Assembly (NCBI GenBank): GCA_965222035.1 | Contig: OZ244940.1 | Coordinates: forward strand, 1,287,134 to 1,351,133 | Direction of reading: 5' to 3' | Source: Candidatus Amphirhobacter sp. | GTDB lineage: Bacteria; Pseudomonadota; Gammaproteobacteria; Tethybacterales; Tethybacteraceae | DNA length: 64,000 nucleotides | Shown: positions 4,991-60,642 of the stretch, one piece after another | Position numbering within the stretch: position 1 is the first letter of the stretch | How the letters are laid out: every line of letters begins with the position of its first letter | Translations under genes and position numbers: made by a program | The notes under the pieces: model-generated | Seen by the model: only the letters and a program-made list of their open reading frames with translations | Database searches by the model: none | What the model was told of the DNA's origin: nothing

Positions 4991-7468
<2,478 letters not shown>

Positions 7469-19532: not shown

Positions 19533-22500
19533 ATGGCCGCTATCCTGGCCAGGACCTGGCTCAGGATCAGAAAAAAAAAGGGGGGGGGTAGAGCCTTGCA
19601 ACCTCGCGTAGCCACTGCCTGCTTCGCTTTAATCATCCTGCTCGCCGCGGCTGTCGCGCCGGCGCAGCAGGCCAATTGGGTAGACCAGGGACGCGATGGC
19701 GTGTCCCAGACCAGTTATTTCCATTTGCCGAGCACGACGGACAGCTCGACTGGCATCTCGTTCCATCGCAGCCACCCCAGCTGCCGCTTCAACGACGTGC
19801 GGCTGGTGAATCCGCCGACGTGGCTGGAGATGATCAAGTACAACGGGGACGCCAAGGACGGCGACCCCGGCACTCGCTTCACGGTGCGCATGGAGCGAGG
19901 CCATGCCGACGACCGCAGCCTGCGCCTGTCGTTCAAGGCCGGCTCGACCATGCCGACTGGAGCGCACACCCTGTCCCTGGCGGCCGAGCGCCACCTGACG
20001 AGCCCGGGCTGCTTGGGCGTCGCCGCCGCGACCTTGTCGCTGGAGTACACGATTAGCATCTTCGACAACATCTCGTGGATGGCGCAGGGGCTGCAGGCAT
20101 ATTATAACGGCGCGATCTACCGCACCGATGAGCTGGGCGGACTGGCGCTGGACACGGGCTTGCGGCTGCATCGCCGGCCGAACCTTTGCTCGAAGGTCGA
20201 CCTGTCTCTGGTCGGCGGTACCGAGGACTACCTGGAACTGCGCGCCTTTGAGGCGCAAAATGTTTTGTATCAAAGGCGGACAACGCCACCCTCTGGAGGA
20301 ACTACGGTTACCAACGTGGTCCTCAACACCGGGCGGCCGCTGGGCGCAGGAGCCGCCAGGCTTACCAACCTGGTCATGGATCGCGACAGCCCGCGCGACA
20401 GCTACGTGCGCTTGTTTCACAAGGCGAGCGTCGCTGTGTCCGAGGCGCTCGAGATAACCGTCTCGGTTGCATTCGAGACCAGCCGGAGCTGCGGTTTCCC
20501 GGCGACGGTGCGCAAGCAAACGCTGGATTTCATGCGGCATCATGTTGCGCTTGCGCCAACCCAGTACCAAGCCACATGGAAGCTGGAATCCGAGAGCCTG
20601 ACGCCGGACGGACCATTCAGCCCTGTGCGCATGAGAAGGTTCGGTTTAACGCCCACCGGCATTTTCTTAAATCGCTCTTCTTCCCTTTGCGTGGTTACAA
20701 ATATTCAGCTGCTCAACCACACTGACAAATTCGATATCTACGCCTCCGCGGGCGCCGACGCACTTACAGAAAACCAAGGCGATCATGCAATCAAAAACAA
20801 AACCGGCCATGCCATTGCCTGGGTTATACCAGATGGCAAGGATCTGCCCGCTGCGGGTAGTGTCCTGCGGCTGTCTGTGCTCATGCGATCCAATCCCTTT
20901 CAATGCACTAACAACAACATCGCGCCCAGACAGACCCTGGCTTTCGCCTTGACCGTAGCCACGCCGGCGACGTGGGGTGTCCTGGCCGGCGATGTCACAC
21001 GGCAGACGGGACTGCTCCAGCCGTCGGTGATCAGGGCGTCGGCCACACCGACGGACACCGGGGTGCGTTTCCACCGCGGCACCTCCGCATGCCCCTTAGT
21101 GGACATACTGATGCAACCCAATCCGCATTTGGAAATGCAACTGTACAACGGCAACACCGCGACTGGAGCGGGGGTCACCACAATAAACGGCGTGCGCATG
21201 CAGGTTGGCCATGCGGATGATCGTCTAGTGGGACTGCAGTTCCGGGAGCGAGCTACGGTGCCGAATGGCACGCTGACGGTCACGCTAGAGGCGAGCGCAT
21301 CATCTGGCTGCGAGGCTGCGGACGAGCCGTGGCCGTTGACCTTAACCTACACGCTGACAGTGCAGGAGCGCTGGTCGTGGGAGACGCAGAGCCGGGACAA
21401 CTTCGGCACTCAGCTGGAACTCTCGCGGGCGGACCTGGACGGGGCCGGCTTGGTGGCGACCGGCCTGCGGATCCATCGCGACTCCCATGCCTGCCAGAGC
21501 ACCGACGTGGCGCTGGCGGCGGACGCGCCGTCGTACCTGTCGCTGCGGCGCTACACCGCCGCGGGCGCGACGGACGGCGACGCGGCGGCGACGCTGGCCG
21601 GCGTGAACATGTCGGGATCAGGGGCGAATGACCGCCATGTGCAGGTGATGATCGACGGCGGCACGCAGATCACGCCGGGCGCGACCGTGCTGGTCACGCT
21701 GACGGTCAGCCCGAACTCGTCCTGCACCGGCAACCTCCATCCGGAGGCGCAGCAGCTGGTCGGCAAGGTGCTGCCTGTCAATCCGGACGGCTGGGAGAGC
21801 ATCGCCGGCGACGTGGCCTCGCGCCCGCGGATCCTGTTCCGGCCGTCGCAGCTGCGGGCGGCCGCCACGCCGACGGACACCGGGCTGCGCTTCCACCGCG
21901 GCACCGATTCGTGTCCGCTGGTGGATGTGGTGCTGCGGAACACCGATTATCTGCAGCTGCAGCGGTACACCCCCGCCGGCGCCGTGTCGGGCGCGGCGGG
22001 ATCGTCCTTCACCAACGTGCGCATGGCGGCCGGCCATGCCAGCGACCGGCTGGTGGGCGTGCAGTTCAAGGCCGGCGTCCAGGTCCCGGCGACTAGCCTG
22101 ACGCTGACGCTGGTGGCGCAGCCGGTGTCCTCCTGCGTCAATCCGCGCAAGCCGCGGCCGTTGACGATGTCTTACACGTTGGCGGTGGCGGAGCATTGGC
22201 CGTGGCGGCTCAAGCCGCAGGACAATCTAGGCATGGTGGTGAGCCTGGAGGTGGAGAACCTGGCGGTGTCCGGCCCGGTGGCGACCGGGCTGCGGCTGCA
22301 TCGCGACATCCTGGTGTGCTCGAACTTCGACGTGGCGCTGGCGGCGGACGCGCCGAGTTACCTGAAGCTGCGCAAGTACCTGGGCAACGGCGCGACGGAC
22401 GGCGCGGCGGCGCGGTCGCTGACGGGCGTGGACGTGTCCGGCGCGGGCGCGCTCGCCCGGCATGTGCGGGTGGCGATCGACGGCGGCACCAGCTTCACGG

Positions 22501-41322: not shown

Positions 41323-44300
41323 ATGGAAGGGCGTTTGATTCGCCATGAAAGGGGGGGGGGTAGCGCCCTTCTAAGCGGCCTGGCGGTTGCGGCCGCCTTG
41401 TTGCTGACGGGCGTGATGATGGCGCCGCAGGCGCATGCTCAGGTGCAGGTTGTCCTAGGAAACCTCCACAAGACAACGGCCGACAAGGTTCTCACTTATC
41501 CCTATGAGGCTGGCCTGACCGGCATCGCTTTCCATGTGACTACATGCGGCGCTCCATCCAACATTGTTCTGCAAACCCGCACCGACGATTTTGACCTGGT
41601 AAGTTATTTCGTCGTACAAGGCCAAATCGGCGTTCGAGAAGGCCGCGGCGACAGCCGAAATGCCGTCGGCCGCGTCCACTACCTGGAGCTAGTTGACGGC
41701 CGGGACAGCCTGCCGGACGGTCCTCTGACCGTTACGGTCAAAGTTTGCAACCAGGCGCCATCGGCCTACACCGTCACGGTGGCGACGTGGTACGACCAGG
41801 GCATGCACAGCGACCGGCCCGCCAGCCGCCACGTCCGAGACATTGCGCCTGGCCAAGACACCGGCATCGCCATTCATCGCAGCGCCAACACGTGTCGCTT
41901 CACCGACGTGCGGCTGGCGGCCGGCGCGCCGGCTTGGCTGGAGCTGCGCCGGCATCGCGCCGACGGCACCGCCGACGGCGACGCCGGGCAGCGTTTGACG
42001 GCGCGGATGGAGAAGGACCATGCCGACGACCGGCATGTGCGCGTGCGCTTCAAGGACGACGCCAGCATGGAGCCGGGCAGCTATGTGTTCTCGATCGTGA
42101 TGGCGCGCACGGCGACCAGCGGCGCGGGATGCACCGCCGCGAGCGCGGCGGCGTACACGCTAGGCTACACCCTCAACATCAGTTTGGGAGCCAGCTGGGA
42201 ACGTCAGGAATCCCTGAACAGCGACAGCGTCACAAGCCACAGTGCGGATGCTTTGGGCGGGCCGTTCGCATTGGCGATGGGCCCGCGCATCCACCGCAGC
42301 TCCTCTTCATGCCGGTGGACGGACGCGAGCCTGGTGGCCGGCGGCTCGTTCTTGGCTATGCAGCGCTACGCCACAACGGGCAACGAAGCGGTTGGCGCGC
42401 CGGCGACCAGCGTGACCGACGTGCGCATGCAGCGCGGCTCTCCGGGCGATCGATATCTCGGCTTGATCTATCGCCGGAATACGCCAGTGCCAGCGGGGAC
42501 GGTGACCGCGGCGGTGGAACTCAAGCCGGCCGCGCGCTGCGCGAATTACGTCGGCATCCCCGGGCCGCTGACGCTGAGCTTCACCGCCACGATCGGCGCG
42601 GCAGCTGCCAACACGGAGCCCTGGATCATCAAGACCGGCTTCGCGAGCTCGGCGCCGACCATCTCGGTCTTCAGCCCGGCCAGCATCCACACGTCCCGCA
42701 CATATAGGGAAATACATACCGGCATCTTCATCGGCCGGCGCACGGCGACTTGCAACGATTATTCCTACAACCTGCTCAATCACCGCGATCTGTTCGAAGT
42801 CGGATACTATCCACTTCACACAGGCTACCAAGACAATATTCAACCCGACGATTCGTTTAGCCGGAATCGCTCCTTCAATTTCGGTGACAACGATGGAGGC
42901 TTCGGCCTGCAGTTCGAGGCCGGCGCGCAGCCGGAGCCGAACACCACCATCACCCTGCATGTGGCGCTGGGCAGGTTTAGATGCGGCAGCCCCGCGCTGA
43001 CCACGCTGTCGTACACCATGACCATTGGCCCGGCGGCGCCCTGGGGAACCTTGGCGAACAATGTCGCGACGGTGACCACGCTGTTCAGGCCCACGCAGCT
43101 GGCGGCCGCCGCGTCGGCGACCGACACCGGCATCCGCTTCAACCGCGGCGTGGCGACGAGCATCTGCACGAACGTGGACGTGGAGCTGGCGAGCGGCAGC
43201 CGCACCCATGTGGAACTGCAGAAGTACAACGGGACGGCGGCCGACGGCGCGGCGGCGGTTTCGTTCGGGGGCCTGACCATGCATGCGGGCGCGACGGGCA
43301 ATCCGGTGGGCCTGCAGTTCAAGGCGGGCGCGTCGGTGCCGGCCGGCGTCCTGACGGTGGCGGTGATCGCCAAGCCCGCCGGCAGCTGCGATCATGCGGA
43401 AGAGCCAATCCCGCTGACGGTGAATTATGAGCTGGTGGTGGGCGAGCGGCAGCCGTGGCAGGTGCACGATCTCGACAGCATGGGACGGGTGGTACTGCTC
43501 GACGGCTTTGCGGCGCAAAGGAGCGCGGCCGACTCCGGCCTGCGGGTGCACCGCAAGCTGAGCGGCTGCAGCTCCATGGATGTGTCGCTGCCAGACGACG
43601 CGCCTGATTGGGCGATGCTGCAGCAGCATGGCCCGAGCGGCCCGGTCGGCGCGCGCGCGCGGACCCAGGCGGCGGTGCCGATGGCGGGCTCGGGCGCGGC
43701 CGGCGACCGGCATGTGCGGCTGATGATCGTGCCGTCGGGGACGCCCCTGCCGGATGCGCGGCTGACGATGGGCGTCGCGGTGGCGGCCAACGCATCATGC
43801 GGGGCCGGCAGCGACATTCCGGCGCCGCAGATGCTGTCGGGCGTGGTGGTGTTTGACACCCAAGGCGTGGGCACGGAGCAGGCGATCCAGGCGGGCGCTT
43901 CGGCGGCGGTACGGGCAATCGGCTTGGAAACCCTGGACGCGGTCATGGCGCGGCCGGACGCCGTGGCCGGATCATGGTCCAGCGAGCTGCTCGGCTTGAT
44001 GCACGCGCACGAGGCCGAGCTCGAGCGCGGCGAGTTCGAGCTGCGGGACCTGGCGGGCGAGGAGTTCGCGCTGGCTTTGTCGAACAGTCCGACCGGCTTG
44101 CCGGCGGGCCTGGCCCTGTGGGGACGTTTCGCTGCCTACGATGTCGGCAATGAGATCGAAGGCGGCGCGCGCTCGGACAATGAATTGTTCAGCGCGAGCT
44201 TCGGCCTCGACTACCGCCTGCGCGCGGGCATGATGCTCGGCCTGGGCTATGGCCACCACGAGATCGACGGCAGCTACGCTGCCAGCTCGGCCAGCGGCAT

Positions 44301-45150
44301 TTACCAGCTGGATCTGGATTTGTACCAGCCGTACGTCGTCGGCTCGATCGGTCCGGGGCTGCTGGCCGCCTTCGCGAGCCAGGGCTCGGGCGACCTGGTG
44401 ATGCACAGCCACGACGGCATCGCGCTGGCGCCGAGCGAGGCCGACTACCAAGGCTGGGGCCTGGGCTGGAGCAGCGCGGTCGAGCGCTGGGACCTGCTGC
44501 TGCGCGCGGGCGCCAGCACGGGCGAGCTCGACGTCGAGGATGAGACTTTGACGCTGGATACCGAAGCGGGCGCGGCGCGCCTGGCGGTGGCCTACGCGCC
44601 GCAGCGGGATTTGATCAACCATCTGCCCTTTCGTGCCGAGCTCGAGGTGGCCTGGGAGGACAACTGGGGCGATGTCGCGACCGACGCGAGCTGGCTGCTG
44701 GGCGCGGCCTTCGAGTACTCCGGCGCCGGGCCCATGCATGCGCGGGCGGCCTACCGCCGGGCGATTGCGGGCGACGGCGACCTGTCCGGCCTGGAGTTCG
44801 ACTTCCAGGTCGATCCGGCCCGCGGCGGCCTGGGTCCGTCCTTCGCCTTGCGCCCGGGCTATGGCTTGGAAACGGGCACTGACTTGTTCGCGCAAGCGGC
44901 GCGGCCGACTTCCTTTACCGCCGGCGCCGACCGCGGCCGGCGCCTGCGCGCCGAGATGGCTTGGGGCCTGCCGGTCAGCGGCGGGGTGCTGACGCCCTAT
45001 GGCGACTGGAGCATGAACGACGCGAGCACGCAGCGCCAACAACTGGGCCTGCGCCTGGGCACCGGCGCCTATGGCGATTGGAACTTGGGCTGGCGCAGCG
45101 CCGACAGCGCCGCTGACGAGCTGCATCTGGAACTGCGCATCGGCGACTAG
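41323..45150 (+). CDS. Paralogous autotransporter-like repeat protein (1275 aa): signal peptide, divergent N-terminal region, ~4 two-cysteine domains and the conserved C-terminal beta-barrel-like domain
   Basis: The start reads M E G R L I R H E R G G G S, a G10 tract, then the signal peptide ALLSGLAVAAALLLTGVMMAPQAHAQ. The C-terminal ~430 aa are homologous to the gene A C-terminus and end ELHLELRIGD. A TAAAAT box lies ~9 nt upstream. Confidence 0.85.
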   Translation: MEGRLIRHERGGGSALLSGLAVAAALLLTGVMMAPQAHAQVQVVLGNLHKTTADKVLTYPYEAGLTGIAFHVTTCGAPSNIVLQTRTDDFDLVSYFVVQGQIGVREGRGDSRNAVGRVHYLELVDGRDSLPDGPLTVTVKVCNQAPSAYTVTVATWYDQGMHSDRPASRHVRDIAPGQDTGIAIHRSANTCRFTDVRLAAGAPAWLELRRHRADGTADGDAGQRLTARMEKDHADDRHVRVRFKDDASMEPGSYVFSIVMARTATSGAGCTAASAAAYTLGYTLNISLGASWERQESLNSDSVTSHSADALGGPFALAMGPRIHRSSSSCRWTDASLVAGGSFLAMQRYATTGNEAVGAPATSVTDVRMQRGSPGDRYLGLIYRRNTPVPAGTVTAAVELKPAARCANYVGIPGPLTLSFTATIGAAAANTEPWIIKTGFASSAPTISVFSPASIHTSRTYREIHTGIFIGRRTATCNDYSYNLLNHRDLFEVGYYPLHTGYQDNIQPDDSFSRNRSFNFGDNDGGFGLQFEAGAQPEPNTTITLHVALGRFRCGSPALTTLSYTMTIGPAAPWGTLANNVATVTTLFRPTQLAAAASATDTGIRFNRGVATSICTNVDVELASGSRTHVELQKYNGTAADGAAAVSFGGLTMHAGATGNPVGLQFKAGASVPAGVLTVAVIAKPAGSCDHAEEPIPLTVNYELVVGERQPWQVHDLDSMGRVVLLDGFAAQRSAADSGLRVHRKLSGCSSMDVSLPDDAPDWAMLQQHGPSGPVGARARTQAAVPMAGSGAAGDRHVRLMIVPSGTPLPDARLTMGVAVAANASCGAGSDIPAPQMLSGVVVFDTQGVGTEQAIQAGASAAVRAIGLETLDAVMARPDAVAGSWSSELLGLMHAHEAELERGEFELRDLAGEEFALALSNSPTGLPAGLALWGRFAAYDVGNEIEGGARSDNELFSASFGLDYRLRAGMMLGLGYGHHEIDGSYAASSASGIYQLDLDLYQPYVVGSIGPGLLAAFASQGSGDLVMHSHDGIALAPSEADYQGWGLGWSSAVERWDLLLRAGASTGELDVEDETLTLDTEAGAARLAVAYAPQRDLINHLPFRAELEVAWEDNWGDVATDASWLLGAAFEYSGAGPMHARAAYRRAIAGDGDLSGLEFDFQVDPARGGLGPSFALRPGYGLETGTDLFAQAARPTSFTAGADRGRRLRAEMAWGLPVSGGVLTPYGDWSMNDASTQRQQLGLRLGTGAYGDWNLGWRSADSAADELHLELRIGD
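41351..41360 (+). repeat. Poly-G (G10) tract in the 5' coding region of paralog B, currently in frame
   Basis: The context gaaaGGGGGGGGGGtagcg matches the motif in the other paralogs. Confidence 0.7.
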
Positions 45151-45205
45151 CAAGCGGCAGCGAGCGGGTTGCCTGCGTCGTTCTCAAGAGGTTAAGTAGT
45201 ATTTA

Positions 45206-45243
45206 GTGGCAGACAATCTGCCGCTGCAAGATAGCGGTTTGAG
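45206..45243. terminator. Conserved hairpin (ggcaga-caa-tctgcc) plus second small hairpin and T-run between the convergent paralog B and AAA ATPase genes; a candidate bidirectional terminator
   Basis: A 6-bp stem with a 3-nt loop is followed by gcggtttg. The same element recurs at 56159-56195 in the second module. Confidence 0.4.
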
Positions 45244-45305
45244 CTAAACAGGCTTACGATGACTTGGCCGAGCTTCTCGGCCTGCGCAACATCGATTCTG
45301 CTCCT

Positions 45306-46463
45306 TCAATTTTTCTTGCGCTTGCGCCGGGCTTTGAAGTATTGGAAGAAGGAGGGGATGGCAGCCCGTACCTTAGCGTCGTTCGTAAACCATACCAAGC
45401 TGTTGTCTAGCAGCAGATTGAAAATCTTGCGCGCCTCTTCGGAACTCATGCCATCATTGGTGGCCGCCAGCTCCGCGGCAACCTCTTCGGGCGGCAATGG
45501 CGGATCCTCATCTTCCACGATAGCCACTACCTGGCTGGCGTAGTCCAATGCGTCTGCGTCTGCGATCTTCTCGTAAACGCTGTGATAGTAAATTTGGCGC
45601 TCCTTCTGCATGGCGGCCTCGGCGCCCTGCGCCAGGGCCAGGTCGACTTCATTGCGCTTGGCTTTCCGCATGGCCTTCCACACTTCCCTGCCCGCCAGCT
45701 GGATGAAGTAAGGATAGTTGTCAGTCCAGCCCGCCATCAAATCAAGCGCCTCGTCCGCCACCTTCACGCCATTGTCCAGCAGCGGCTTGCTCAGTGCTTC
45801 GCGCACCGCCTCGTCGCTGAGCTGATGGATGTATATCGATTGGCAGCGATTGATGAAGGAGGCGTCGGCCTGGTGCAATCTCCCGTCGAGCGCTGGAGTA
45901 CCGGCTATCATCACCGCCAAAGGCCGCTTTAGCATGAGCATCTGCTGGCACGCCTGCAGCAAGTCCCCGAGGGACGTAACATCGTAGTGCATCGCCTCGT
46001 CCAGCAGCAGCAGCACGGGTTTCCTGCGCAGCAGCTGCTGCAACACTCGCGCAATCGTCCGCTTCTCGTAATGCTTCCGCCGCGCGGTAAAGATGGACAG
46101 GCTAAACTGGTAGAAAGCGTTCAGCCACAGCAATGCGTGCTCGCGGATGTCCATGCCATCAAGCAAGCCGTTGATGATGTCGCTGTCCGGGTTCAAGTTG
46201 CGCAGCCTGGCGATGTTAACCACGTGGATGCCTTGTTGCCGCGCTTCGACGCCAGCCACACCTAGCAGCGTCGTTTTGCCCGCCCCGCGCGGGCCGACAA
46301 TCTTGATGGGCGTGAGCGGAGAACGCTCCAGGCCGCCGCCGACCAGAGGCTTGGCGATCAAACGCAGGGTCTCGCTGATTATGTCCCGCTGCTCTTCCCG
46401 TCCCGCCAAATGCGGGGGTTCGAGCGCTGTGCCCGGAACAAACGGGTTTTCGACAGACCCCAT
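45306..46463 (-). CDS. AAA+ ATPase (ATPase_2/AAA_16-like; Walker A GPRGAGKT, Walker B LLLLDEAMHY), paralog 1
   Basis: 385 aa. The N-terminus reads ...NPFVPGTALEPPHLAGREEQ...IKIVGPRGAGKTTLL. It is about 85% identical to the ORF at 56256..57416. A TAAAAT box lies 7 nt upstream of the ATG on the minus strand. Confidence 0.8.
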   Translation of the reverse strand: MGSVENPFVPGTALEPPHLAGREEQRDIISETLRLIAKPLVGGGLERSPLTPIKIVGPRGAGKTTLLGVAGVEARQQGIHVVNIARLRNLNPDSDIINGLLDGMDIREHALLWLNAFYQFSLSIFTARRKHYEKRTIARVLQQLLRRKPVLLLLDEAMHYDVTSLGDLLQACQQMLMLKRPLAVMIAGTPALDGRLHQADASFINRCQSIYIHQLSDEAVREALSKPLLDNGVKVADEALDLMAGWTDNYPYFIQLAGREVWKAMRKAKRNEVDLALAQGAEAAMQKERQIYYHSVYEKIADADALDYASQVVAIVEDEDPPLPPEEVAAELAATNDGMSSEEARKIFNLLLDNSLVWFTNDAKVRAAIPSFFQYFKARRKRKKN

Positions 46464-46644
46464 GATTTGTATTTTACCCTTGCAAGAGGCGGAAAAAGCA
46501 AAAACAGGGGCTCCATGCTTGGCTTGGAGCGCTGCCAGCCCATCTTGGCCTGGTCCTCAATCAACGTTGCGCTCAGGCAACAACAATGCCGAGCATGCCC
46601 GCCTGCGGACAGGCTCCCTGCCAGGCATGCTTTAAAATCTCCGC

Positions 46645-48432
46645 ATGGCCGGCCTGCGTGCGTCCTTGTCCAAGTTGGTCCGCGCCGCCCTGGCGCTGGC
46701 CGTTGGCGCTATTGCCGCCGGTGCCCATGCGCAGTGGCAGACGCTGACCCAGGACAACATGAACACGGCGTCCTCGCTGGATCTGCTGGCGCTGCAGGCG
46801 GCGGGACCTGCGCCGACGGGCCTGATCGTACACCGCAAGACCAACAGCTGTACGAGCATTGACGTGGAGCTGGCGGCTAACGCGCCGGCGATGTTGCGGC
46901 TGCGGCAGTACCGCGGCGACCAACCCGAGGGCAGTGCGGAGCGCTCGCTGCAGGGCGTGTCGATGACCGGCGTGGAAGCGACGGACCGCCATGTGCGGGT
47001 GATGATCGCCAGCGGCGCTTCCCTGACGGTGGGCGCGACGGTGTTCGCGACCCTGACGGTGAAGGCGAACTCGACCTGCACTGGCTCGCAGCCGGCGGAG
47101 CAGCAGGTGACGGGCCGGGTGGTCGTGACCGGCACCGGCCTGGCGACCCAAGAGGCGGCCCAGGCGAGCAACGCCACCGCGCTGCGGCGCATCGGCACCG
47201 AGACGCTGGATGCCATCATGCTGCGCATGGACGCGGTGGCCGATGCTTCCGCCGCCACTGACCTGCGCGGCTTGGCCGCCATCCAGGCGCGGGATTCGCA
47301 GGAAGGCTTCGACCTGCGCGACCTGGCCGGCCAGGACTTCGTGCTGGGTCTGAACCAGCGCGCCAGCGACGGGCCCTTGAAGGCGGGCAACCTGGCGTTG
47401 TGGGGACGTTTCGGCCTCTATGCCCTGGATGCGGTCACTGACGGCGGCGTCAAGCATGACAGCGACCAGCTCAGCGCGAGCTTCGGCCTCGATTACCGCT
47501 TTCGCGACGACATGCTGCTGGGCTTTGGCTACGGCCACCACGGTTTCGAAGGCGGCTACGCCGGCCATCGCGAGGTCGCGGGCGACTACGTCTTGGATGT
47601 CAACGTGCTGCAGCCGTATGTGGTCGGGCGCTTCGGACCGCCGGGCTGGCTGGCGGCGTACGCCAGCATGGGCAAGGGCGAGATGCGGGTGAGCAACGGC
47701 GACGGCCTGCCGGCTGGCGAGTACGAGGTCGATTACAGCGGCTGGGGCTTCGGCTGGCGGCATGAGCTGCGGCAGGGCCTGCGCCTGCGCGCCGGCGCGA
47801 GCGGCGGCGAGCTGGACGCGGAGGATGGCGAGTTGTACCTGGATGTGGCGGCTGGCGCCGCGCAGCTGGCGGTCGGCTATGCGGTTAGGGCCGAGCTGAT
47901 CAAAGGCGCTGAGCTGCATCCGGTGATTGAGGTCGCCTGGGTGGATAAGTGGGGCGACGCGGCCACCGAGGCCACCTGGCTGTTCGCGGCCGCATTCGAG
48001 TATGCTGGCGAGGGTCCGATGCATATCCGGGCGGGCTATCGCCGGGCGATGGCCGGCGATGCCCTGTCCGGCGCTGAGATCGACGCGCGGATCGCGCCCG
48101 CTCGCGGCGGCCTGGGTCCGTCCCTGGCGCTGCGGCCCAGCTACGGCCTGCCGCGGGGGGATGAGTTGCTGCCTGATGCATCCGTCCTGTCCTTGCCGTC
48201 AGCTGCCGGGTACCGCGGCGTACGTCTGGACGCTGAGTTCGTCTGGGGCCTGCCAGTCAACGGCGGGGTCGCCACGCCGTACAGCGAATGGAGCTTGGAT
48301 GCGGATCAGGGCCATGCGGGTGGCCTGGGCTTGCGCTTGGGTACCGGCGCGTATGGCGATTGGGATTTGGGCTGGCGCCGCACAGTTAGCGCCACCGACG
48401 AGCTGCATCTGGAATTGCGCATCGGCGACTAG
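46645..48432 (+). CDS. Minimal family member (595 aa): canonical signal peptide, one two-cysteine domain and the C-terminal beta-barrel-like domain
   Basis: It starts MAGLRASLSKLVRAALALAVGAIAAGAHAQ with no homopolymer tract, followed by TGLIVHRKTNSCTSIDVELAANAPAMLRLRQY...DRHVRVMIASG...NSTC. The C-terminus is homologous to the other paralogs (...LWGRFGLY...LSASFGLDYRFRDDMLLGFGYG...ELHLELRIGD). A TAAAAT box lies 9 nt upstream. Confidence 0.85.
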   Translation: MAGLRASLSKLVRAALALAVGAIAAGAHAQWQTLTQDNMNTASSLDLLALQAAGPAPTGLIVHRKTNSCTSIDVELAANAPAMLRLRQYRGDQPEGSAERSLQGVSMTGVEATDRHVRVMIASGASLTVGATVFATLTVKANSTCTGSQPAEQQVTGRVVVTGTGLATQEAAQASNATALRRIGTETLDAIMLRMDAVADASAATDLRGLAAIQARDSQEGFDLRDLAGQDFVLGLNQRASDGPLKAGNLALWGRFGLYALDAVTDGGVKHDSDQLSASFGLDYRFRDDMLLGFGYGHHGFEGGYAGHREVAGDYVLDVNVLQPYVVGRFGPPGWLAAYASMGKGEMRVSNGDGLPAGEYEVDYSGWGFGWRHELRQGLRLRAGASGGELDAEDGELYLDVAAGAAQLAVGYAVRAELIKGAELHPVIEVAWVDKWGDAATEATWLFAAAFEYAGEGPMHIRAGYRRAMAGDALSGAEIDARIAPARGGLGPSLALRPSYGLPRGDELLPDASVLSLPSAAGYRGVRLDAEFVWGLPVNGGVATPYSEWSLDADQGHAGGLGLRLGTGAYGDWDLGWRRTVSATDELHLELRIGD

Positions 48433-48512: not shown

Positions 48513-48521
48513 GGGGGGGGG
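48513..48521 (+). repeat. Poly-G (G9) tract; the length puts the upstream ATG and signal peptide out of frame in paralog D
   Basis: The context gatgaaagGGGGGGGGGtagcggccctctag matches E (G10) but has one G fewer. Confidence 0.8.
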
Positions 48522-52324: not shown

Positions 52325-55300
52325 ATGGCCGCAGGATTTTTTGATGAAAGGGGGGGGGGTAGCGGTCCTCTAGGGCATTGCCGCTCAATCCTGGCGGCGC
52401 TAACTTGCATGCTGGCTTTGCCCTTCGCCGCCGAGGCGCAGCAACTAGGCAACCAGCATAGCGCGACGGCCGATCGCATCGTCAACCTGCCGTATGACAG
52501 CGGCAAGAGCACTGGCATCAAGTTCCACATCACCAGCTGCACCACCGGCGGTGGTTTTAGTTCCAGGATTTATCAACGCAACAACGATTTCATTACTCAC
52601 CTTTTTCTTGACTACAGCACGGACGGCAGTTATCTAGGCAGCACAAATTCAAGCAGTTACCCCTTCAGCAATAGTGTACTGCATTTTGCTGTCGTAAGTG
52701 TTGCCACCACGGAAGGAGTGCGACGCCCGGAAATAAAGATATGCAATCATGCGGACATGGCCTACGCCGTTACGGTGGCGAAGTGGGAGGACCAGGGCCA
52801 GGCTGACGACACGCCGGAGAGCAGGTACTATCACGTGCGCGGCGCAGCGGCCGGCGTCGACACCGGCATCGCCTTCCACCGCAGCGGCTCGACCTGCCGC
52901 TACAATGATGTTCAATTGGTCAATCCGCCCTCCTGGCTGGAGCTGCGCAAGTACACGGCCAGCGGGACGCCGGACGGTGCCGCCGGCATGCGCTTCACGG
53001 TGCGGATGGAGAAGGATCATGCGGAGGATCGCCAGGTGCGGCTGCTGTTCAAGGAAGGGGTGACGGTTGCGGTGGGCCAGCACATGGCGACCATGGCGGT
53101 AGCGCGCCATTTAGCGTCGGCCGGATGCAGCGGGGGCCTGGACACGACGGTGACGCTCGTGCACACGCTCAACATCACCGACCAGGCCGACTGGACGGCG
53201 CAGGGCGGGGAAAACGCCATCGAGCCTTACGACATTCGCTCCGACGCTCTCGGCGCGGCGGGGGTGGGCCTGGGCCTGACGCTTCACCGCAGCTCGGAAG
53301 TCTGCCGGTACACGTCGGTGTCGTTGGCGGGCGACGCAAGCTCTTTCTTGGAGCTGCGCACCTACTCGACGGCGACGCGGCGGCTGGTCGGTACGCCGGC
53401 CGCGAGCCTGCCGGGCGTGTTCATGCAGCGCGGCGTGGCGGGCGACCGCAACGTGCAGGTGTTCTCCAAGAGTGGCGCGTCGGTGACGCCGGGGACCAAG
53501 GCGGTGACGATCGCGGTCCAGCCCGGTGCCCGCTGCGGTTTTCAGCAGGGCTTGCCGTCGGCACAGACCTTGGCGTTGCAGTGGACGGTGCTCTCGCCCT
53601 TCAGCTCGCCCGAGGCCTGGCAATTAGGCAGCGGCGATGACGCGGTACCGGACGGGCCGTTCAGCCCGCGGGCGGTGTCGGAGTCCTCTGATCCGGTGCC
53701 CGTCGGGGTGTACCTGCATCGTACTTCAGCGTCCTGTAGTTTCATCCATCATGAGATTCTAAGCGGCCATGAAGCGCTCGATATATATCTTGTGAATCCT
53801 GGCCGTACCAGCCGCACCTGGCGGGGCGATTTAGCAGCAATAAATATCAACTTCAACTCGGCCGCCCTGTATTTCGAGCCGGGCGTGCAGCTGGCGTCCG
53901 GCAGCGAGCTGCCCGTGTCAATCCAAATTCGCCCTGATGCGACATGCAACGCGGGCGCGGCCGTCCAGACCCTGGCGTTCACCTTGACGATGGGCACGGC
54001 GGAGGCGTGGCGCGCCCTGGCCGGCGATGTCGCGACGGCGACGATGCTGTTCCAGCCGGCGAGCCTGCGCGTGTCGACCTCGCCGACGGACACCGGCGTG
54101 CGCTTCCATCGCGGCACCTCGGCCTGTCCGCAGGTGGATGTGGCGGTGGGCCCGACGGCGTTCATGGAACTGCGCAAGTACAATGGCGGTACCGCGGACG
54201 GCGCGGCGGCAGTGTCTCTGGCCGACGTGCGCATGCAGGCGAGCCATGCCGACGACCGGCGGGTGGGGGTGCAGTTCAAGGCGGGCGTCACGCTGCCGCC
54301 GGGCTTGTTCACGGCGACCGTGGTGGCCAAGGCGGCCTCAGGCTGCGCGCATGGCAACGCGCCGGTGCCCTTGACCTTGGCTTATGAATTGGCGGTGCTG
54401 GACGCCTGGCCGTGGCGGACAGCGGCGCAGGACAATTTCGGCACGCCAGCGCAGCTGGACAGGCTGGAGCTCGAGGGTTCCGGCGCGCTGCCGACTGGAT
54501 TGCGCGTGCAGCGCAATTCGCGGGCCTGCGCGAGTACCGATGTGGCGCTGGCATCCGACGCGCCGTCATATCTGTCGCTGCGGCGCTACAGCGCCACCGG
54601 TCCCGACGGCGCGGCGGCGCGGTCGCTGGCGGGCGTGAACATGACCGGCTCCGGCGCGGCCGACCGCCATGTGCGGGTGATGATCGCGGGTGGGACGGCG
54701 CTTGATGTCGGCGCCGCGGTCACGGTTTCGCTGACGGTATCCGCCAACGCATCCTGCTCGGGCGCGGCGGGCGTACCGGCGGCGCAGGAGCTGGTGGGCT
54801 ACGTGCTCGTCAGCGGCGGCGGGCTGCTGGCGGAGGCGGCCATGCAGGCGGGCACTGCCTTGGCGGTGCGGGCGCTGGGCATCGAGACGCTGGGCGCGGT
54901 CATGGCGCGTCCCGGCGCGCCATCAGGAGCGGCGGCCAGCGAGCAGCTGCTCGGCATGCTGGCGGCGAAGGAAGCGGAGCTCGAGAGCGGCGCGATCGAC
55001 TTGCGCGAGTTCCTCGCCGGCCAGAGTTTCGCGCTGCCGCTGGCGTCCGCCGACGGCGGCCTGCCGCCAGGCTTGATGATGTGGGGCCGGGCGGCGGCAT
55101 ATGACGTGGGCGCGGCGGTCGAGAACGGTCCGCGGGTGGACAGCGATCTGTTCAGCGGCAGCTTCGGCGTCGACTATCGTTTTCGCGAGGGCATGCTGCT
55201 GGGGCTGGGCTTTGGCCGGCACGAGCTGTCGGGTCGTTACAGCAATCGGGGTTCCACCGGCAGCTATCAACTGGATTTGAATCTGTACCAGCCTTATGCC

Positions 55301-56113
55301 GCGGCGCAGCTCGGCCCGGGCTGGCTGGCGGCCTACGGCAGCCAGGGCACGGGCGACTTGCTGCTCGAGATCCAGGATGGCGTGGACCGCAAGCCCAGCC
55401 TCAAGGCCGACTACACCGGCTGGGGCCTGGGCTGGTACAACGACATCGAGCGCTGGGACCTGCGCCTGCGGGCCGGCGCGAGCGCCGGCGAGCTGGAGTT
55501 CGAGGAGAATCGCCTTGAGCTGAATACCGAAGCGGGCACGGCGCGCCTGGCGGTGGCCTATGCGCCGGGCCGCGACCTGGTCGTCGACATCCCGATCCAG
55601 CCGGAGGTGGAGATCGCCTGGGCCGATGAATGGGGCGACGCCGCCGGCGACTCAAGCTGGCTGCTGGCGCTGGCCTTCGACTACGCCGGCGACGGTCCGC
55701 TGCAGCTGCGCACCACCTACCGCCGCGCAGTCAGCGGCGGCGGCGACCATGCCGGGGCCGAGCTGGACGTCCGCGTCGATGCCGGCCGCGGTGGCTTGGG
55801 CCCCTCCTTCGCTTTGCGCCCGCATTACGGCATTGAAGGGGGAGCGGATTTGTTCGCGCAGGTGGCGCAGCCGACCACCTTCGCCGCAGGCGACGACCGC
55901 GGCCGTCGCCTGCAAGCTGAGATGGCCTGGGGCCTGCCGGTCAACGGCGGGGTGCTGGTGCCGTACGGTGGCTGGAGCATGGAACGACGCGATCACAGCC
56001 GGCGGCTGGGACTGCGCCTGGACAGCGGCGCCTACGGCGACTGGAACCTGGGCTGGCGCAGCGCCGACAGCAGTATCGACGAGCTGCATCTGGAACTGCG
56101 CATCGGCGACTAA
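52325..56113 (+). CDS. Paralog E (about 1262 aa): signal peptide after an in-frame G10 tract, ~4 two-cysteine domains and the C-terminal beta-barrel-like domain
   Basis: The ATG at 52325 reads MAAGFFDERGGGSGPLGHCRSILAALTCMLALPFAAEAQQLGNQHSATADRIV.... The listed ORF 52121..56113 only extends upstream because there is no stop in the frame. The C-terminus ends ELHLELRIGD. Confidence 0.85.
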   Translation: MAAGFFDERGGGSGPLGHCRSILAALTCMLALPFAAEAQQLGNQHSATADRIVNLPYDSGKSTGIKFHITSCTTGGGFSSRIYQRNNDFITHLFLDYSTDGSYLGSTNSSSYPFSNSVLHFAVVSVATTEGVRRPEIKICNHADMAYAVTVAKWEDQGQADDTPESRYYHVRGAAAGVDTGIAFHRSGSTCRYNDVQLVNPPSWLELRKYTASGTPDGAAGMRFTVRMEKDHAEDRQVRLLFKEGVTVAVGQHMATMAVARHLASAGCSGGLDTTVTLVHTLNITDQADWTAQGGENAIEPYDIRSDALGAAGVGLGLTLHRSSEVCRYTSVSLAGDASSFLELRTYSTATRRLVGTPAASLPGVFMQRGVAGDRNVQVFSKSGASVTPGTKAVTIAVQPGARCGFQQGLPSAQTLALQWTVLSPFSSPEAWQLGSGDDAVPDGPFSPRAVSESSDPVPVGVYLHRTSASCSFIHHEILSGHEALDIYLVNPGRTSRTWRGDLAAININFNSAALYFEPGVQLASGSELPVSIQIRPDATCNAGAAVQTLAFTLTMGTAEAWRALAGDVATATMLFQPASLRVSTSPTDTGVRFHRGTSACPQVDVAVGPTAFMELRKYNGGTADGAAAVSLADVRMQASHADDRRVGVQFKAGVTLPPGLFTATVVAKAASGCAHGNAPVPLTLAYELAVLDAWPWRTAAQDNFGTPAQLDRLELEGSGALPTGLRVQRNSRACASTDVALASDAPSYLSLRRYSATGPDGAAARSLAGVNMTGSGAADRHVRVMIAGGTALDVGAAVTVSLTVSANASCSGAAGVPAAQELVGYVLVSGGGLLAEAAMQAGTALAVRALGIETLGAVMARPGAPSGAAASEQLLGMLAAKEAELESGAIDLREFLAGQSFALPLASADGGLPPGLMMWGRAAAYDVGAAVENGPRVDSDLFSGSFGVDYRFREGMLLGLGFGRHELSGRYSNRGSTGSYQLDLNLYQPYAAAQLGPGWLAAYGSQGTGDLLLEIQDGVDRKPSLKADYTGWGLGWYNDIERWDLRLRAGASAGELEFEENRLELNTEAGTARLAVAYAPGRDLVVDIPIQPEVEIAWADEWGDAAGDSSWLLALAFDYAGDGPLQLRTTYRRAVSGGGDHAGAELDVRVDAGRGGLGPSFALRPHYGIEGGADLFAQVAQPTTFAAGDDRGRRLQAEMAWGLPVNGGVLVPYGGWSMERRDHSRRLGLRLDSGAYGDWNLGWRSADSSIDELHLELRIGD
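52350..52359 (+). repeat. Poly-G (G10) tract in the 5' coding region of paralog E, in frame (ON configuration)
   Basis: ttttttgatgaaagGGGGGGGGGGtagcggtcct. Confidence 0.8.
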
Positions 56114-56158
56114 AGTCGGCGCGCGGATTGCCCGCGCCGTTCTCAAGGGAAGTCTTAG

Positions 56159-56195
56159 TGGCAGATAGTCTGCCGCGGCAAAGATAGCGGTTTAA
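56159..56195. terminator. Second copy of the conserved hairpin (ggcaga-tag-tctgcc plus gcggttt) between the convergent paralog E and AAA ATPase 2
   Basis: Same structure and position as 45206-45243. Confidence 0.4.
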
Positions 56196-56255
56196 TCAAA
56201 ACAGGCATGCAGTGCCCAACGAAATTTATGGCTTGCGCAGTTCAGCCCTGCTTCT

Positions 56256-57416
56256 TCAATCCTTGTTTTCCTCTTGCCGGGCCTTGAAATATTGGAAGAA
56301 GGATGGGATGGCAGGTTGCACCTTGGCGTCATCCGCAAACCATATCAAGCTGTTGTCCAGCAACAGATTGAAAATCTTGCGCGCCTCTTGGGAACTCATG
56401 CCATTATTGGCGGCTGCGAGCTTCTCCATTACTTTTTCAGATGTGAACGGCGAATCCGCGCCTTCCACGATGGCCACGACCTGGTTGGCGTAGCCCAACG
56501 CGTCTGCGTCTGCGATCTTCTCGTAAACGCTGTGGTAGTAAATGCGGCGCTCCTTCTGCATGGCAGCCTCGGCGCCCTGCGCCAGGGCCAGGTCGACTTC
56601 ATTGCGCTTGGCTTTCCGCATGGCTTTCCACACTTCCCTGCCCGCCAGCTGGACGAAGTAAGGATAGTTGTCAGTCCAGCTCGCCATCAAATCGAGCGCC
56701 TCGTCCGCCACCTTCACGCCATTGTCCAGCAGTGGCTTGCGCAGGGCGTCGCGCACCGCCTCGTCGCTGAGTTGGTGGATGTACATCGATTGGCAGCGAT
56801 TGATGAAGGAAGCATTGGCCTGATTCAGCTTTCCATCGAGAGCGGGCGTACCGGCTATCATCACCGCCAAAGGCCGCTTCTGCTTGATCATCTGCTGACA
56901 CGCCTGCAGTAGTCTGCCAAAGGACTTGGCATTATAGTGCATCGCCTCATCTAGCGACAACAGTACGGGATGCCGGCTCAGCCGGGCTCGCAGCACTCTC
57001 TTGATCGTCTGCTGCTCGTAATGCTTCCGCTTCGCGGAAAAAATGGACAGGCCAAGCTGGTAGAAACCGCTCAGCCACAGCAGGGACCGCTCGCGGAGGT
57101 CCATGCCCTCCAGCAAGCCGCTGATGATTTCGCTGCTCGGATCCAAGCGAAGCAGTTCGGCACTGTCAACCACATGGATGCCCTGTCGCCGCGCCTCTGC
57201 TTCAGCCAGGCCCAGCAGGGATGTCTTGCCCGCCCCCCGCGGGCCGACGATCTTGATGGGCGTGAGCGGAGAACGCTCCAGCCTGCCGTCGACCAGGGGT
57301 TTGGTGATTATACGCAGGGTCTCGCTGATTATGTCCCGCTGCTCTTCCCGCCCCGCCAAATGCGGGGGCTCGGTGGCAGTGCCCGGAACAAACGGGTTTT
57401 CGACAGACCCCATGGT
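56256..57416 (-). CDS. AAA+ ATPase paralog 2 (Walker A GPRGAGKT, Walker B LLSLDEAMHY)
   Basis: 386 aa from the ATG complementary to 57414-57416 (MGSVENPFVPGTATEPPHLAGREEQ...), which is the homologous start to paralog 1. The listed ORF extends a further 43 codons upstream but without homology. Confidence 0.8.
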   Translation of the reverse strand, partial: TMGSVENPFVPGTATEPPHLAGREEQRDIISETLRIITKPLVDGRLERSPLTPIKIVGPRGAGKTSLLGLAEAEARRQGIHVVDSAELLRLDPSSEIISGLLEGMDLRERSLLWLSGFYQLGLSIFSAKRKHYEQQTIKRVLRARLSRHPVLLSLDEAMHYNAKSFGRLLQACQQMIKQKRPLAVMIAGTPALDGKLNQANASFINRCQSMYIHQLSDEAVRDALRKPLLDNGVKVADEALDLMASWTDNYPYFVQLAGREVWKAMRKAKRNEVDLALAQGAEAAMQKERRIYYHSVYEKIADADALGYANQVVAIVEGADSPFTSEKVMEKLAAANNGMSSQEARKIFNLLLDNSLIWFADDAKVQPAIPSFFQYFKARQEENKD

Positions 57417-57550
57417 TTGTATTTTACCTTCGCAAGGGGCGAGAAACATAAAAACAGGGGTTGCATGCTCATGCAAGCCATCGCATGCAAGATGGTAGCA
57501 TTGAGGATCAGCCGCCACCGCAGGCATTTCCGCATAAAATAACATTTGCC

Positions 57551-57943
57551 ATGACCAAGCGGATGCGCTTCCTGCCCCTTTTGCTGCTGCCGCTACTGCT
57601 GCAGGGATGCGGTGGCTTCCTCACCGAGATGAAATGCCGCAATGGCCCGCTGCAGCAGGAGGTGTCGTCGCTGTGGGAGCGCATCGTCGAGCTGCGCGGC
57701 AACGCCAGGCGGGGCTACGCTCTCCATGTACAGTACGTCTCCGAGCAGGAGCCGTACACCGACAAGGACGACCAGGGCCGCGAGGTGACGCGGTACCGCA
57801 GAGTGGAGCGGCGGGTCGAGACGCCGGTGTCGATCGACGTCGAGGCCCAGCGGGCGCAGGCCGAGGCCCTGGCACGCAGCGCCGGCCGGATCGAGGACGC
57901 GGCCGAGCAAGAGTACCTCAAGTGCCTCGCCGCCAACAGCTGA
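57551..57943 (+). CDS. Small lipoprotein (130 aa), paralog 1
   Basis: MTKRMRFLPLLLLPLLLQGCGG contains the lipobox LLQGC. About 60% identical to 58144..58542 (GPLQQE..S...R..ELRGN..RGYALH.QYV.E.EPYTD.D..GR.VTR.R.V.RRVETPV.ID...QRAQAE.L.RS..RI.DAA.QEYLKC). A TAAAAT box lies 10 nt upstream. Confidence 0.7.
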   Translation: MTKRMRFLPLLLLPLLLQGCGGFLTEMKCRNGPLQQEVSSLWERIVELRGNARRGYALHVQYVSEQEPYTDKDDQGREVTRYRRVERRVETPVSIDVEAQRAQAEALARSAGRIEDAAEQEYLKCLAANS

Positions 57944-57956
57944 CGGATCGCGCTCG

Positions 57957-58109
57957 ATCCCTTGGCGACGCTTGACCGCAAGAGTTAGCGCGGCAGGCGC
58001 TGCTACTGCTGGAGCGACATGCCGCCTGAGCACCGGCGCCTATGGCGACACTGGAAACTTGGCTGGTGCTGCCGACGAGTTGCTTCTGGAAATGCGCATC
58101 GGCGACTAG
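57957..58109 (+). pseudogene. Mosaic remnant: a decayed duplicate of the 5' end of the DUF2723 gene (57957-58028), fused to a degraded 3' end of an autotransporter-family gene (58029-58109, encoding ...GTGAYGDTGNLAGAADELLLEMRIGD*)
   Basis: 57944-58028 aligns with 58543-58625 (cgctcgat.c.ttggcg.cgcttgaccgcaag..ttagcgcggcaggcgctgc..ctgctggagcg) but carries a 2-nt insertion that breaks the frame. 58029-58109 aligns with the last ~30 codons of the paralog genes (ggcgcctatggcga...gagctgcatctggaactgcgcatcggcgactag) with internal deletions. It is followed by a cctgtgtaaaat promoter-like box like the one upstream of genes D and E. Confidence 0.65.
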
Positions 58110-58143
58110 GCGCAGCCGTTCCTGTGTAAAATATCATACGGCT

Positions 58144-58542
58144 ATGATCAAGAAGATATGCTGCTGGTTGCTGCTTCCGTTGCCTGTCCTTCTGCAGGGC
58201 TGCGGCGGCGGCGGCGGTGTCGTCACCGAGAGAGATTGTCGTAGTGGCCCGCTGCAGCAGGAACTGACATCGATGCAGAGGCGTGTCAACGAGTTGCGCG
58301 GCAATGTGACGCGAGGCTATGCTCTCCACATCCAGTACGTCGAGGAGAATGAGCCGTACACCGATAGGGATCTCGACGGCCGCCAGGTGACGCGCTTTCG
58401 CAAGGTGCAGCGGCGGGTTGAGACGCCAGTTGCGATCGATATTGATAGCCAACGGGCGCAGGCCGAGGTTTTAGAGCGGAGCGTGGACCGGATCGCGGAT
58501 GCGGCCCACCAAGAGTACCTCAAGTGCCGCGCCGGCAACTGA
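58144..58542 (+). CDS. Small lipoprotein (132 aa), paralog 2
   Basis: MIKKICCWLLLPLPVLLQGCGGGGG contains the lipobox LLQGC. It is preceded by tgtaaaatatcatacggctATG. Confidence 0.7.
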   Translation: MIKKICCWLLLPLPVLLQGCGGGGGVVTERDCRSGPLQQELTSMQRRVNELRGNVTRGYALHIQYVEENEPYTDRDLDGRQVTRFRKVQRRVETPVAIDIDSQRAQAEVLERSVDRIADAAHQEYLKCRAGN

Positions 58543-58560
58543 CGGCTCGCTCTCGATTCT

Positions 58561-60642
<2,082 letters not shown>

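Follow-up and report, generated by a model that had tools for sequence, protein, structure and literature searches.

A 200-nucleotide stretch between two lipoprotein genes of Candidatus Amphirhobacter sp., probable scar of one old head-to-tail duplication

Spontaneous tandem duplications that arise by RecA-independent illegitimate recombination or template switching have their join points at short direct repeats, as in E. coli and in gene amplifications of Acinetobacter. Homology-facilitated illegitimate recombination in natural transformation is described for Acinetobacter and Streptococcus pneumoniae. In Salmonella, spontaneous duplications with short direct-repeat junctions (7–27 bp) are documented (PMC3411829). 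The locus described here is similar to the Salmonella duplications in its head-to-tail copies, in the fusion of a downstream end to an upstream start, in the microhomology at the joint (9 nt), in the unduplicated allele found in relatives and in the apparent renewed loss of the duplication in most lineages. Duplications obtained in the laboratory tend to be large (kb to hundreds of kb), recent and unstable, whereas this one is about 600 bp long and old, with 26% divergence between the copies; unlike those of the laboratory, its copies both appear to be under purifying selection and its joint seems to have decayed independently in two lineages. With homology-facilitated illegitimate recombination the locus shares a segment that is homologous on one side (lipoprotein gene 3' end or DUF2723 start) and joined by microhomology on the other, and a gene body far more divergent than its surroundings. 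It differs from that process in that no single-copy donor of the type of the second lipoprotein gene is found, and in that a duplication in place gives the same structure. Gene remnants at contingency and surface-protein break points are likewise short 5' and 3' pieces of adjacent genes that carry frameshifts, stop codons and deletions, and the setting, a hypervariable island of paralogous, putatively surface-protein genes with poly-G tracts, is like that of contingency loci. Unlike silent cassettes for recombinational variation, the fragments described here would be by-products of duplication, and no evidence of their use as donors is found.

The window is a stretch of 64,000 nucleotides of Candidatus Amphirhobacter sp. 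(contig OZ244940.1, positions 1,287,134 to 1,351,133, forward strand). An island of paralogous large genes, here called the family (a giant gene and genes B, C, D and E), is located near its end. The subject of the analysis is the 200 nt (57944–58143) that separate lipoprotein gene 1 (lipo1) from lipoprotein gene 2 (lipo2). A DUF2723/TMEM260-like gene and topA follow downstream. The 200 nt are interpreted, with a probability of about 0.78, as the scar left by a single old event in which about 600 bp were duplicated head to tail. Features of the locus are as follows.

19533–41258: giant family gene, 7241 aa.
41323–45150: family gene B.
45306–46463 and 56256–57413, minus strand: two paralogous AAA_22 ATPase genes.
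46645–48432: family gene C.
48488/48571 to 52269: family gene D.
52325–56113: family gene E.
57470–57520, plus strand: putative upstream deletion scar, composed of AAA_22 ATPase upstream region and a family 3' remnant (anchored alignment with Type I strains).
57535–57540, plus strand: TAAAAT box of lipo1, putative -10 element, 10 nt before the ATG, kept in all relatives and in the outgroup.
57551–57943, plus strand: lipo1, 130 aa, lipobox LLQGC, ortholog of the single-copy gene of relatives.
57944–58031, plus strand: dead spacer (18 nt) and first ~23 codons of DUF2723 (alignment with z = 29.6; true gene starts of 8 strains aligned).
58023–58031, plus strand: join point, 9-nt microhomology CGCCTGAGC (overlap of the two alignments).
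58023–58110, plus strand: dead last ~30 codons of a family gene, with TAG at 58108–58110 (z = 18–23).
58111–58143, plus strand: duplicated lipoprotein promoter and spacer before lipo2, with a putative TAAAAT box at 58127–58132, 11 nt before the ATG.
58144–58542, plus strand: lipo2, 132 aa, lipobox as in lipo1, divergent paralog.
58543–58628, plus strand: live parent of the first scar arm, spacer and DUF2723 start, with the microhomology site at 58620–58628.
58561–60642, plus strand: intact DUF2723/TMEM260-like gene, 693 aa, TTG start (Pfam PF11028, E = 1.9e-14).

The first arm of the scar is a dead copy of the start of DUF2723. In the alignment of 57944–58031 with 58543–58628, 76 of 88 columns are identical (86%), or 76 of 86 aligned bases (88%), with one 2-nt gap. 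The alignment score of 115 compares with 18.5 ± 3.3 in dinucleotide-shuffled sequence (z = 29.6). The initial annotation had given about 88% identity for the two post-lipoprotein flanks, and the recomputed pairwise alignment returns the same figure. It had also taken the second flank for the start of a DUF2723 ORF and the first for a copy with its frame broken by a 2-nt insertion; both are borne out. A 693-aa ORF with a match to a TMEM260-like Pfam family begins at TTG 58561, and the insertion is located around 57980–57983, after TTG 57962. Close homologues of the DUF2723 protein (90% cluster) are all called at 693 aa (13 of 13). In the outgroup the gene has its TTG start in the same place and LLERHAAWALG in common with the window. 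The first copy has an in-frame TAG at 57986–57988, nine codons in, and a TGG changed to TGA at 58028–58030. Relative to the live starts of 8 strains it carries about 8 private substitutions in addition to the frameshift. The dead fragment 57962–58031 is homologous to the DUF2723 start and corresponds to a part of the protein upstream of the Pfam domain (residues 44–188). Judged by its sequence, 57962–58031 is evidently a pseudogene piece of the DUF2723/TMEM260-like gene.

The second arm is a dead 3' end of a family gene. Aligned with the 3' ends of genes B, C, D and E, 58023–58110 is identical in 71–76% of columns including gaps (z = 17.7–23.1); for gene B the identity is 77 of 84 aligned bases (~92%). 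This agrees with the earlier observation of about 80 nt that match, with internal deletions, the last 30 codons of family genes. Decay of the arm consists of one 2-nt insertion and one 14-nt deletion. Its translation ends in RLSTGAYGDTGNLAGAADELLLEMRIGD before the stop, that of the family in LRLGTGAYGDWNLGWRSADSAADELHLELRIGD; the last residues of the fragment are DELLLEMRIGD. The C-terminal motif shared by the family is GTGAYGDWNLGW followed by DELHLELRIGD and stop, and the arm, which reads TGAYGDTGNLAGAADELLLEMRIGD and stop, belongs to the family. The label autotransporter-like, previously attached to the family genes, is unsupported: no beta-domain or passenger domain is recognised. Genes B and C have no Pfam or NCBIfam match at E ≤ 0.01, and gene D has none in a search of Pfam only. 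The C-terminal residue of the family is D, not an aromatic residue. The proteins may still have a remote match to the autotransporter fold.

DUF2723 homology extends up to 58031 and family homology starts at 58023, which gives a 9-nt overlap, CGCCTGAGC. Both parents carry CGCCTGGGC, DUF2723 at 58620–58628 and gene B at 45052–45060; 8 nt of it are present in the family gene of strain L013. A short identity shared by both parents is located exactly at the switch point. The probability of a 9-nt overlap at a random joint is around 1e-5 by our own estimate; overlaps of this length are unexpected there and typical of microhomology-mediated events (compare PMC3411829). Segments 57519–58031 and 58111–58628 are adjacent direct copies on the same strand, 75% identical over 530 columns. 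Duplication of a lipoprotein-plus-flank unit is confirmed by this alignment, and the unit is wider than first reported. The earlier description of a fossil junction, with a dead DUF2723 start, a dead family 3' end and a promoter box before lipo2, is confirmed by the alignments as well. The joint connects the start of DUF2723, the downstream parent, to the 3' end of a family gene, the upstream parent. Because downstream sequence is fused to upstream sequence and a complete copy of what lies between stands on either side, the joint is that of a head-to-tail duplication. DUF2723 is intact in the window, and the upstream family gene is intact in strain L015.

Strain-level relatives were obtained from ENA and Logan assemblies by protein cluster look-up, and 12 were fetched. 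Comparison of the syntenic region, which the initial annotation had recommended, revealed both the unduplicated state and the product of duplication. Six assemblies (L013, L014, L019, L021, L022, L026) have a family gene (~595 aa), one lipoprotein gene and DUF2723. In L013 the parent sites are at 6566 (family gene, CGCCTGGG) and 7173 (DUF2723, CGCCTGGGC), 607 bp apart; in the window the distance from the joint (58023) to the parent site (58620) is 597 bp. The unduplicated allele thus has the parent sites in the expected order and, as measured in L013, at the expected spacing. In strain L015, from a different sample, an AAA gene and an intact family gene of 597 aa are followed by lipo1, a scar of 114 nt, lipo2 and DUF2723. 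This is the arrangement expected from the duplication, and neither flanking gene is damaged. An assembly artefact was considered and rejected, since this independent assembly from another sample has the orthologous duplication. In L016, L017, L018 and L020 the AAA gene directly precedes a single lipoprotein gene. Assembly L023 begins inside the promoter and has a single lipoprotein copy. The duplication is present in 2 of 13 strain-level assemblies. The outgroup species (L024, L025; dS of DUF2723 to the window 0.47) is without family genes; its one lipoprotein gene and DUF2723 follow a Type ISP restriction enzyme. This Type ISP restriction-modification enzyme (L024 5021–9875, L025 2863–7717) is located between a mannitol dehydrogenase gene and the lipoprotein gene, in the place of the island. 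The island site is a hotspot for swapping of accessory DNA. A scan of GTDB-representative genomes with DUF2723 yielded distant relatives only, at 25–46% identity and mostly from Verrucomicrobiota MAGs; the source species is absent from this set.

Unit 2 is 94% identical at the DNA level between the window and L015. The scar of L015 keeps the family sequence CGCGGGCCGCG, which is lost in the window, and is without ~100 nt that the window has kept; window positions 58023–58110 are orthologous to the shorter L015 remnant. The two scars appear to have decayed independently, in the manner of unconstrained DNA.

The proposed course of events is as follows. The ancestral order would have been family gene, lipoprotein promoter, lipoprotein gene and DUF2723 gene. 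Illegitimate recombination or template switching between the two copies of CGCCTGGGC, one ~88–102 nt before the stop of the family gene and the other ~66 nt into DUF2723, would have doubled everything between them. The new joint, made of the first ~23 DUF2723 codons and the last ~30 family codons, would have been useless from the outset and would have decayed since. A complete family gene would have been kept upstream of copy 1 and a complete DUF2723 downstream of copy 2, and both lipoprotein copies would have been retained as diverging paralogs. By a later, separate deletion, the window lineage would have lost the family gene upstream of lipo1. On this account positions 58023–58110 duplicate the 3' end of the missing family gene and are the largest piece of it to survive. 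The window's own parent family gene being gone, the argument rests on relatives. In origin the scar is a microhomology-mediated duplication, a new example and not a new kind of a well-known process. The case reveals no new mechanism or function; it is ordinary genome wear, unusually well documented by relatives.

The deletion upstream of lipo1 has a scar of its own. Homology to the AAA-proximal intergenic region stops at 57469. From ~57497 onwards the Type I family gene can be aligned in register with the window: its last codons, the former stop codon and the promoter that follows. The remnant in 57470–57520 comprises ~15–25 nt of a family-gene 3' end with the stop codon lost. It is seen solely in the anchored multiple alignment; when the remnant is aligned locally and without anchors to family 3' ends, the match is not significant (p about 0.09). 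The same joint is common to L016, L017, L018 and L020, which have no duplication, and the lost stop there lengthens the called lipoprotein gene to 152 aa. In all likelihood 57470–57520 is where the window lineage lost the family gene that formerly stood before lipo1.

Promoter assignment differs from that proposed initially. The cctgtRtgtaaaat box is shared by D, E and lipo2 if a 3-nt indel is allowed (TTCCTGTATTGTAAAAT in D and E, TTCCTGTGTAAAAT in lipo2), but the literal pattern has no match within 3 mismatches in register. The box had been taken for a family-type promoter that now stands before lipo2; instead, the sequence before lipo2 corresponds base by base to the promoter of lipo1 and to that of the single-copy gene. 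In front of the outgroup lipoprotein gene GCGTAAAAT is found, with the restriction-enzyme gene upstream and without a family gene. The promoter of lipo2 is evidently the TAAAAT box of the lipoprotein gene itself, duplicated along with the gene, and the box appears to be older than the family island. The duplicated promoter (58111–58143), serving lipo2, is probably the sole working part of 57944–58143. A sigma-70 consensus scan of 58111–58143 found no -35/-10 hexamer pair; TAAAAT is present at 58127–58132. In the window (66.5% GC), 9 of 13 TAAAAT hexamers are situated 6–11 nt before the start codon (ATG) of an island gene (19520, 41311, 46633, 48474, 52311, 57535 and 58127 on the plus strand, 46476 and 57426 on the minus strand). 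None of these nine genes has a recognisable Shine-Dalgarno sequence. Promoters of the -10-only type, giving leaderless or near-leaderless mRNAs, are suggested.

Lipoprotein gene 1 has at least 90% amino acid identity to its counterparts in 11 relatives (dS 0.06–0.16); among lipo1 orthologs dS is 0.06–0.18. Lipoprotein gene 2 has 66% amino acid identity to lipo1 (dS 0.62–0.74, dN/dS about 0.35), and its copies in the window and in L015 are orthologs (dS 0.166, dN/dS 0.10). Both lipoprotein copies appear to be functional and under purifying selection. Since dS between lipo1 and lipo2 is 0.62–0.74, against 0.06–0.18 among orthologs, the duplication is very probably older than the earliest divergence in the strain sample. 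No pair is farther apart than the window and L015 (5.9% over DUF2723–topA). Nearer relatives without duplication are L020 and L016 for the window (3.6–3.7%) and L019 for L015 (1.9%). Because the duplication is present in the two most distant strains and absent from their nearer relatives, it would have been lost several times by recombination between the repeats, or the locus would have been exchanged between strains. The type of the left-hand junction likewise conflicts with the DUF2723–topA tree.

Parts of the duplicated unit differ in apparent age. The gene bodies of lipo1 and lipo2 are 26% apart and their promoters 31%, each ~0.9 times the distance to the outgroup. The 3' flank pair is 12% apart, ~0.47 times its outgroup distance (P about 0.01 for equal relative age, our binomial estimate). 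Scar arms are about half as diverged as gene bodies, which is not predicted by plain duplication with clock-like decay. A flank five times too young, as calculated against dS, was considered and rejected: the conserved live parent and calibration by the outgroup shrink the gap to ~2-fold. Gene conversion of the scar arms by their live parents, or an origin of the lipo2 body from a divergent lineage, are open alternatives for the mismatch.

The latter alternative is part of a reading in which unit 2 (family 3' end, promoter, lipo2) is a foreign allele from a divergent relative of lower GC content, acquired by homology-facilitated illegitimate recombination, with a homologous crossover on the right, in the lipoprotein gene 3' end or the DUF2723 start, and the CGCCTGGGC microhomology on the left. 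The pathway is mentioned in PMC6382021. Such an import agrees with the distance between lipo1 and lipo2, which equals the distance of either to the outgroup, with scar arms only ~8–12% from the local parents, with the GC3 of lipo2 (0.76, against 0.91 in lipo1 and 0.93 in core genes) and with its specific changes, 28 GC>AT against 3 AT>GC; the strains moreover recombine, as no single tree can accommodate the distribution of both junctions. It is nevertheless considered unlikely. A single copy of lipo2 type is nowhere found: 12 of 12 related assemblies have the lipo1 type, and L015 alone adds lipo2. The lipo2 cluster has two members only, a scan of JGI metagenomes with a lipo2-specific degenerate pattern gave no match, and a scan of the same metagenomes with the lipo1/lipo2 alignment gave no relative at all. 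The relative-rate difference between lipo1 and lipo2 is not significant (30 vs 42 lineage-specific changes). Gene conversion of the scar arms by functional parents would explain the age difference equally well, and the family 3' ends do appear homogenised. If the import were true, the scar would record that transformation pathway, naturally and at the level of a population, in a lineage not in culture, and exchange among strains would maintain the locus as a polymorphism.

Less probable still is the proposal of the initial annotation that a sixth family gene was largely deleted at the junction: a larger unit with the whole sixth gene between lipo1 and lipo2, later reduced to the 80-nt 3' fragment. 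This two-step route leads to an identical end product, and family genes have been gained and lost in the island (Types I–IV; deletion scar 57470–57520). It needs two events, however, with combined end points that coincide with one 9-nt microhomology. Its intermediate is present in 0 of 13 strains, the full family gene of L015 stands upstream of lipo1 and not between the copies, and neither a family 5' part nor a promoter of the family's own is traceable in the scar. A single duplication, consistent with the microhomology and with the layouts of L013 and L015, explains the whole junction, and a deletion between lipo1 and lipo2 is therefore unneeded. Very improbable is the maintenance of the 200 nt as a functional non-coding element (regulatory RNA, attenuator or terminator). 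The 3' flank pair is more alike than the coding regions, but this similarity is explained by the live DUF2723 start, which is conserved in all strains, while the dead copy has decayed; in addition, ~100 nt of the stretch are missing in L015. No Rfam match is found in the scar and no terminator-like site between lipo1 and lipo2. Given independent decay in two lineages and these negative scans, the scar shows no sign of function. Under the preferred reading, one duplication, the 200 bases are to be annotated as two pseudogene fragments and an inferred promoter, not as coding sequence. The locus would then be a clean natural case of microhomology-mediated duplication, with the unduplicated state, the intact-flank product and two independently decayed joints in one population, and a small calibration case useful for duplication-detection tools and scar-decay rates.

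Public annotation calls lipo2 as an 89-aa protein (P0001) from an internal Met start, by which the signal peptide and lipobox are dropped. The full 132-aa ORF is conserved in L015, and 132 aa with signal peptide and lipobox is the length to be annotated. The lipoprotein family (P0039–P0062) is rare and unannotated, with 25 representatives among 1.84 billion proteins (HMMER search). It is characterized by the motifs C-R-x-G-P-x-Q, RGYA-x-H, EPYT and E-x-PV-x-ID and by two conserved cysteines. In the window lineage and in the outgroup the lipoprotein gene is directly upstream of the DUF2723/TMEM260-like gene and topA.

Proteins of the large-gene family all end in DELHLELRIGD. Their gene 3' ends (last ~107 nt) are 87–91% identical among paralogs, the remainder about 70%; gene conversion seems to have homogenised these ends. 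Poly-G tracts of 8–10 G are present just past the ATG of every large family gene and differ in length across paralogs and strains. They are located at 19580–19588, 41351–41360, 48513–48521 and 52350–52359 in the window, and at 1060/1096 in L017, 2474 in L019, 2114 in L020, 2483 in L021 and 1169/1201 in L026. Gene D (9 G) is readable for only 15 codons from ATG 48488, and gene E (10 G) for 1262 aa. This variation looks like slipped-strand phase variation of a putative surface-protein family. A module of 1.6 kb occurs twice, at 44900–46519 and 55866–57469, with 83% identity; it spans the 3' end of a family gene, an AAA_22 ATPase gene on the minus strand and ~55 nt upstream of the latter. In every strain examined, family and AAA genes differ in number and order.
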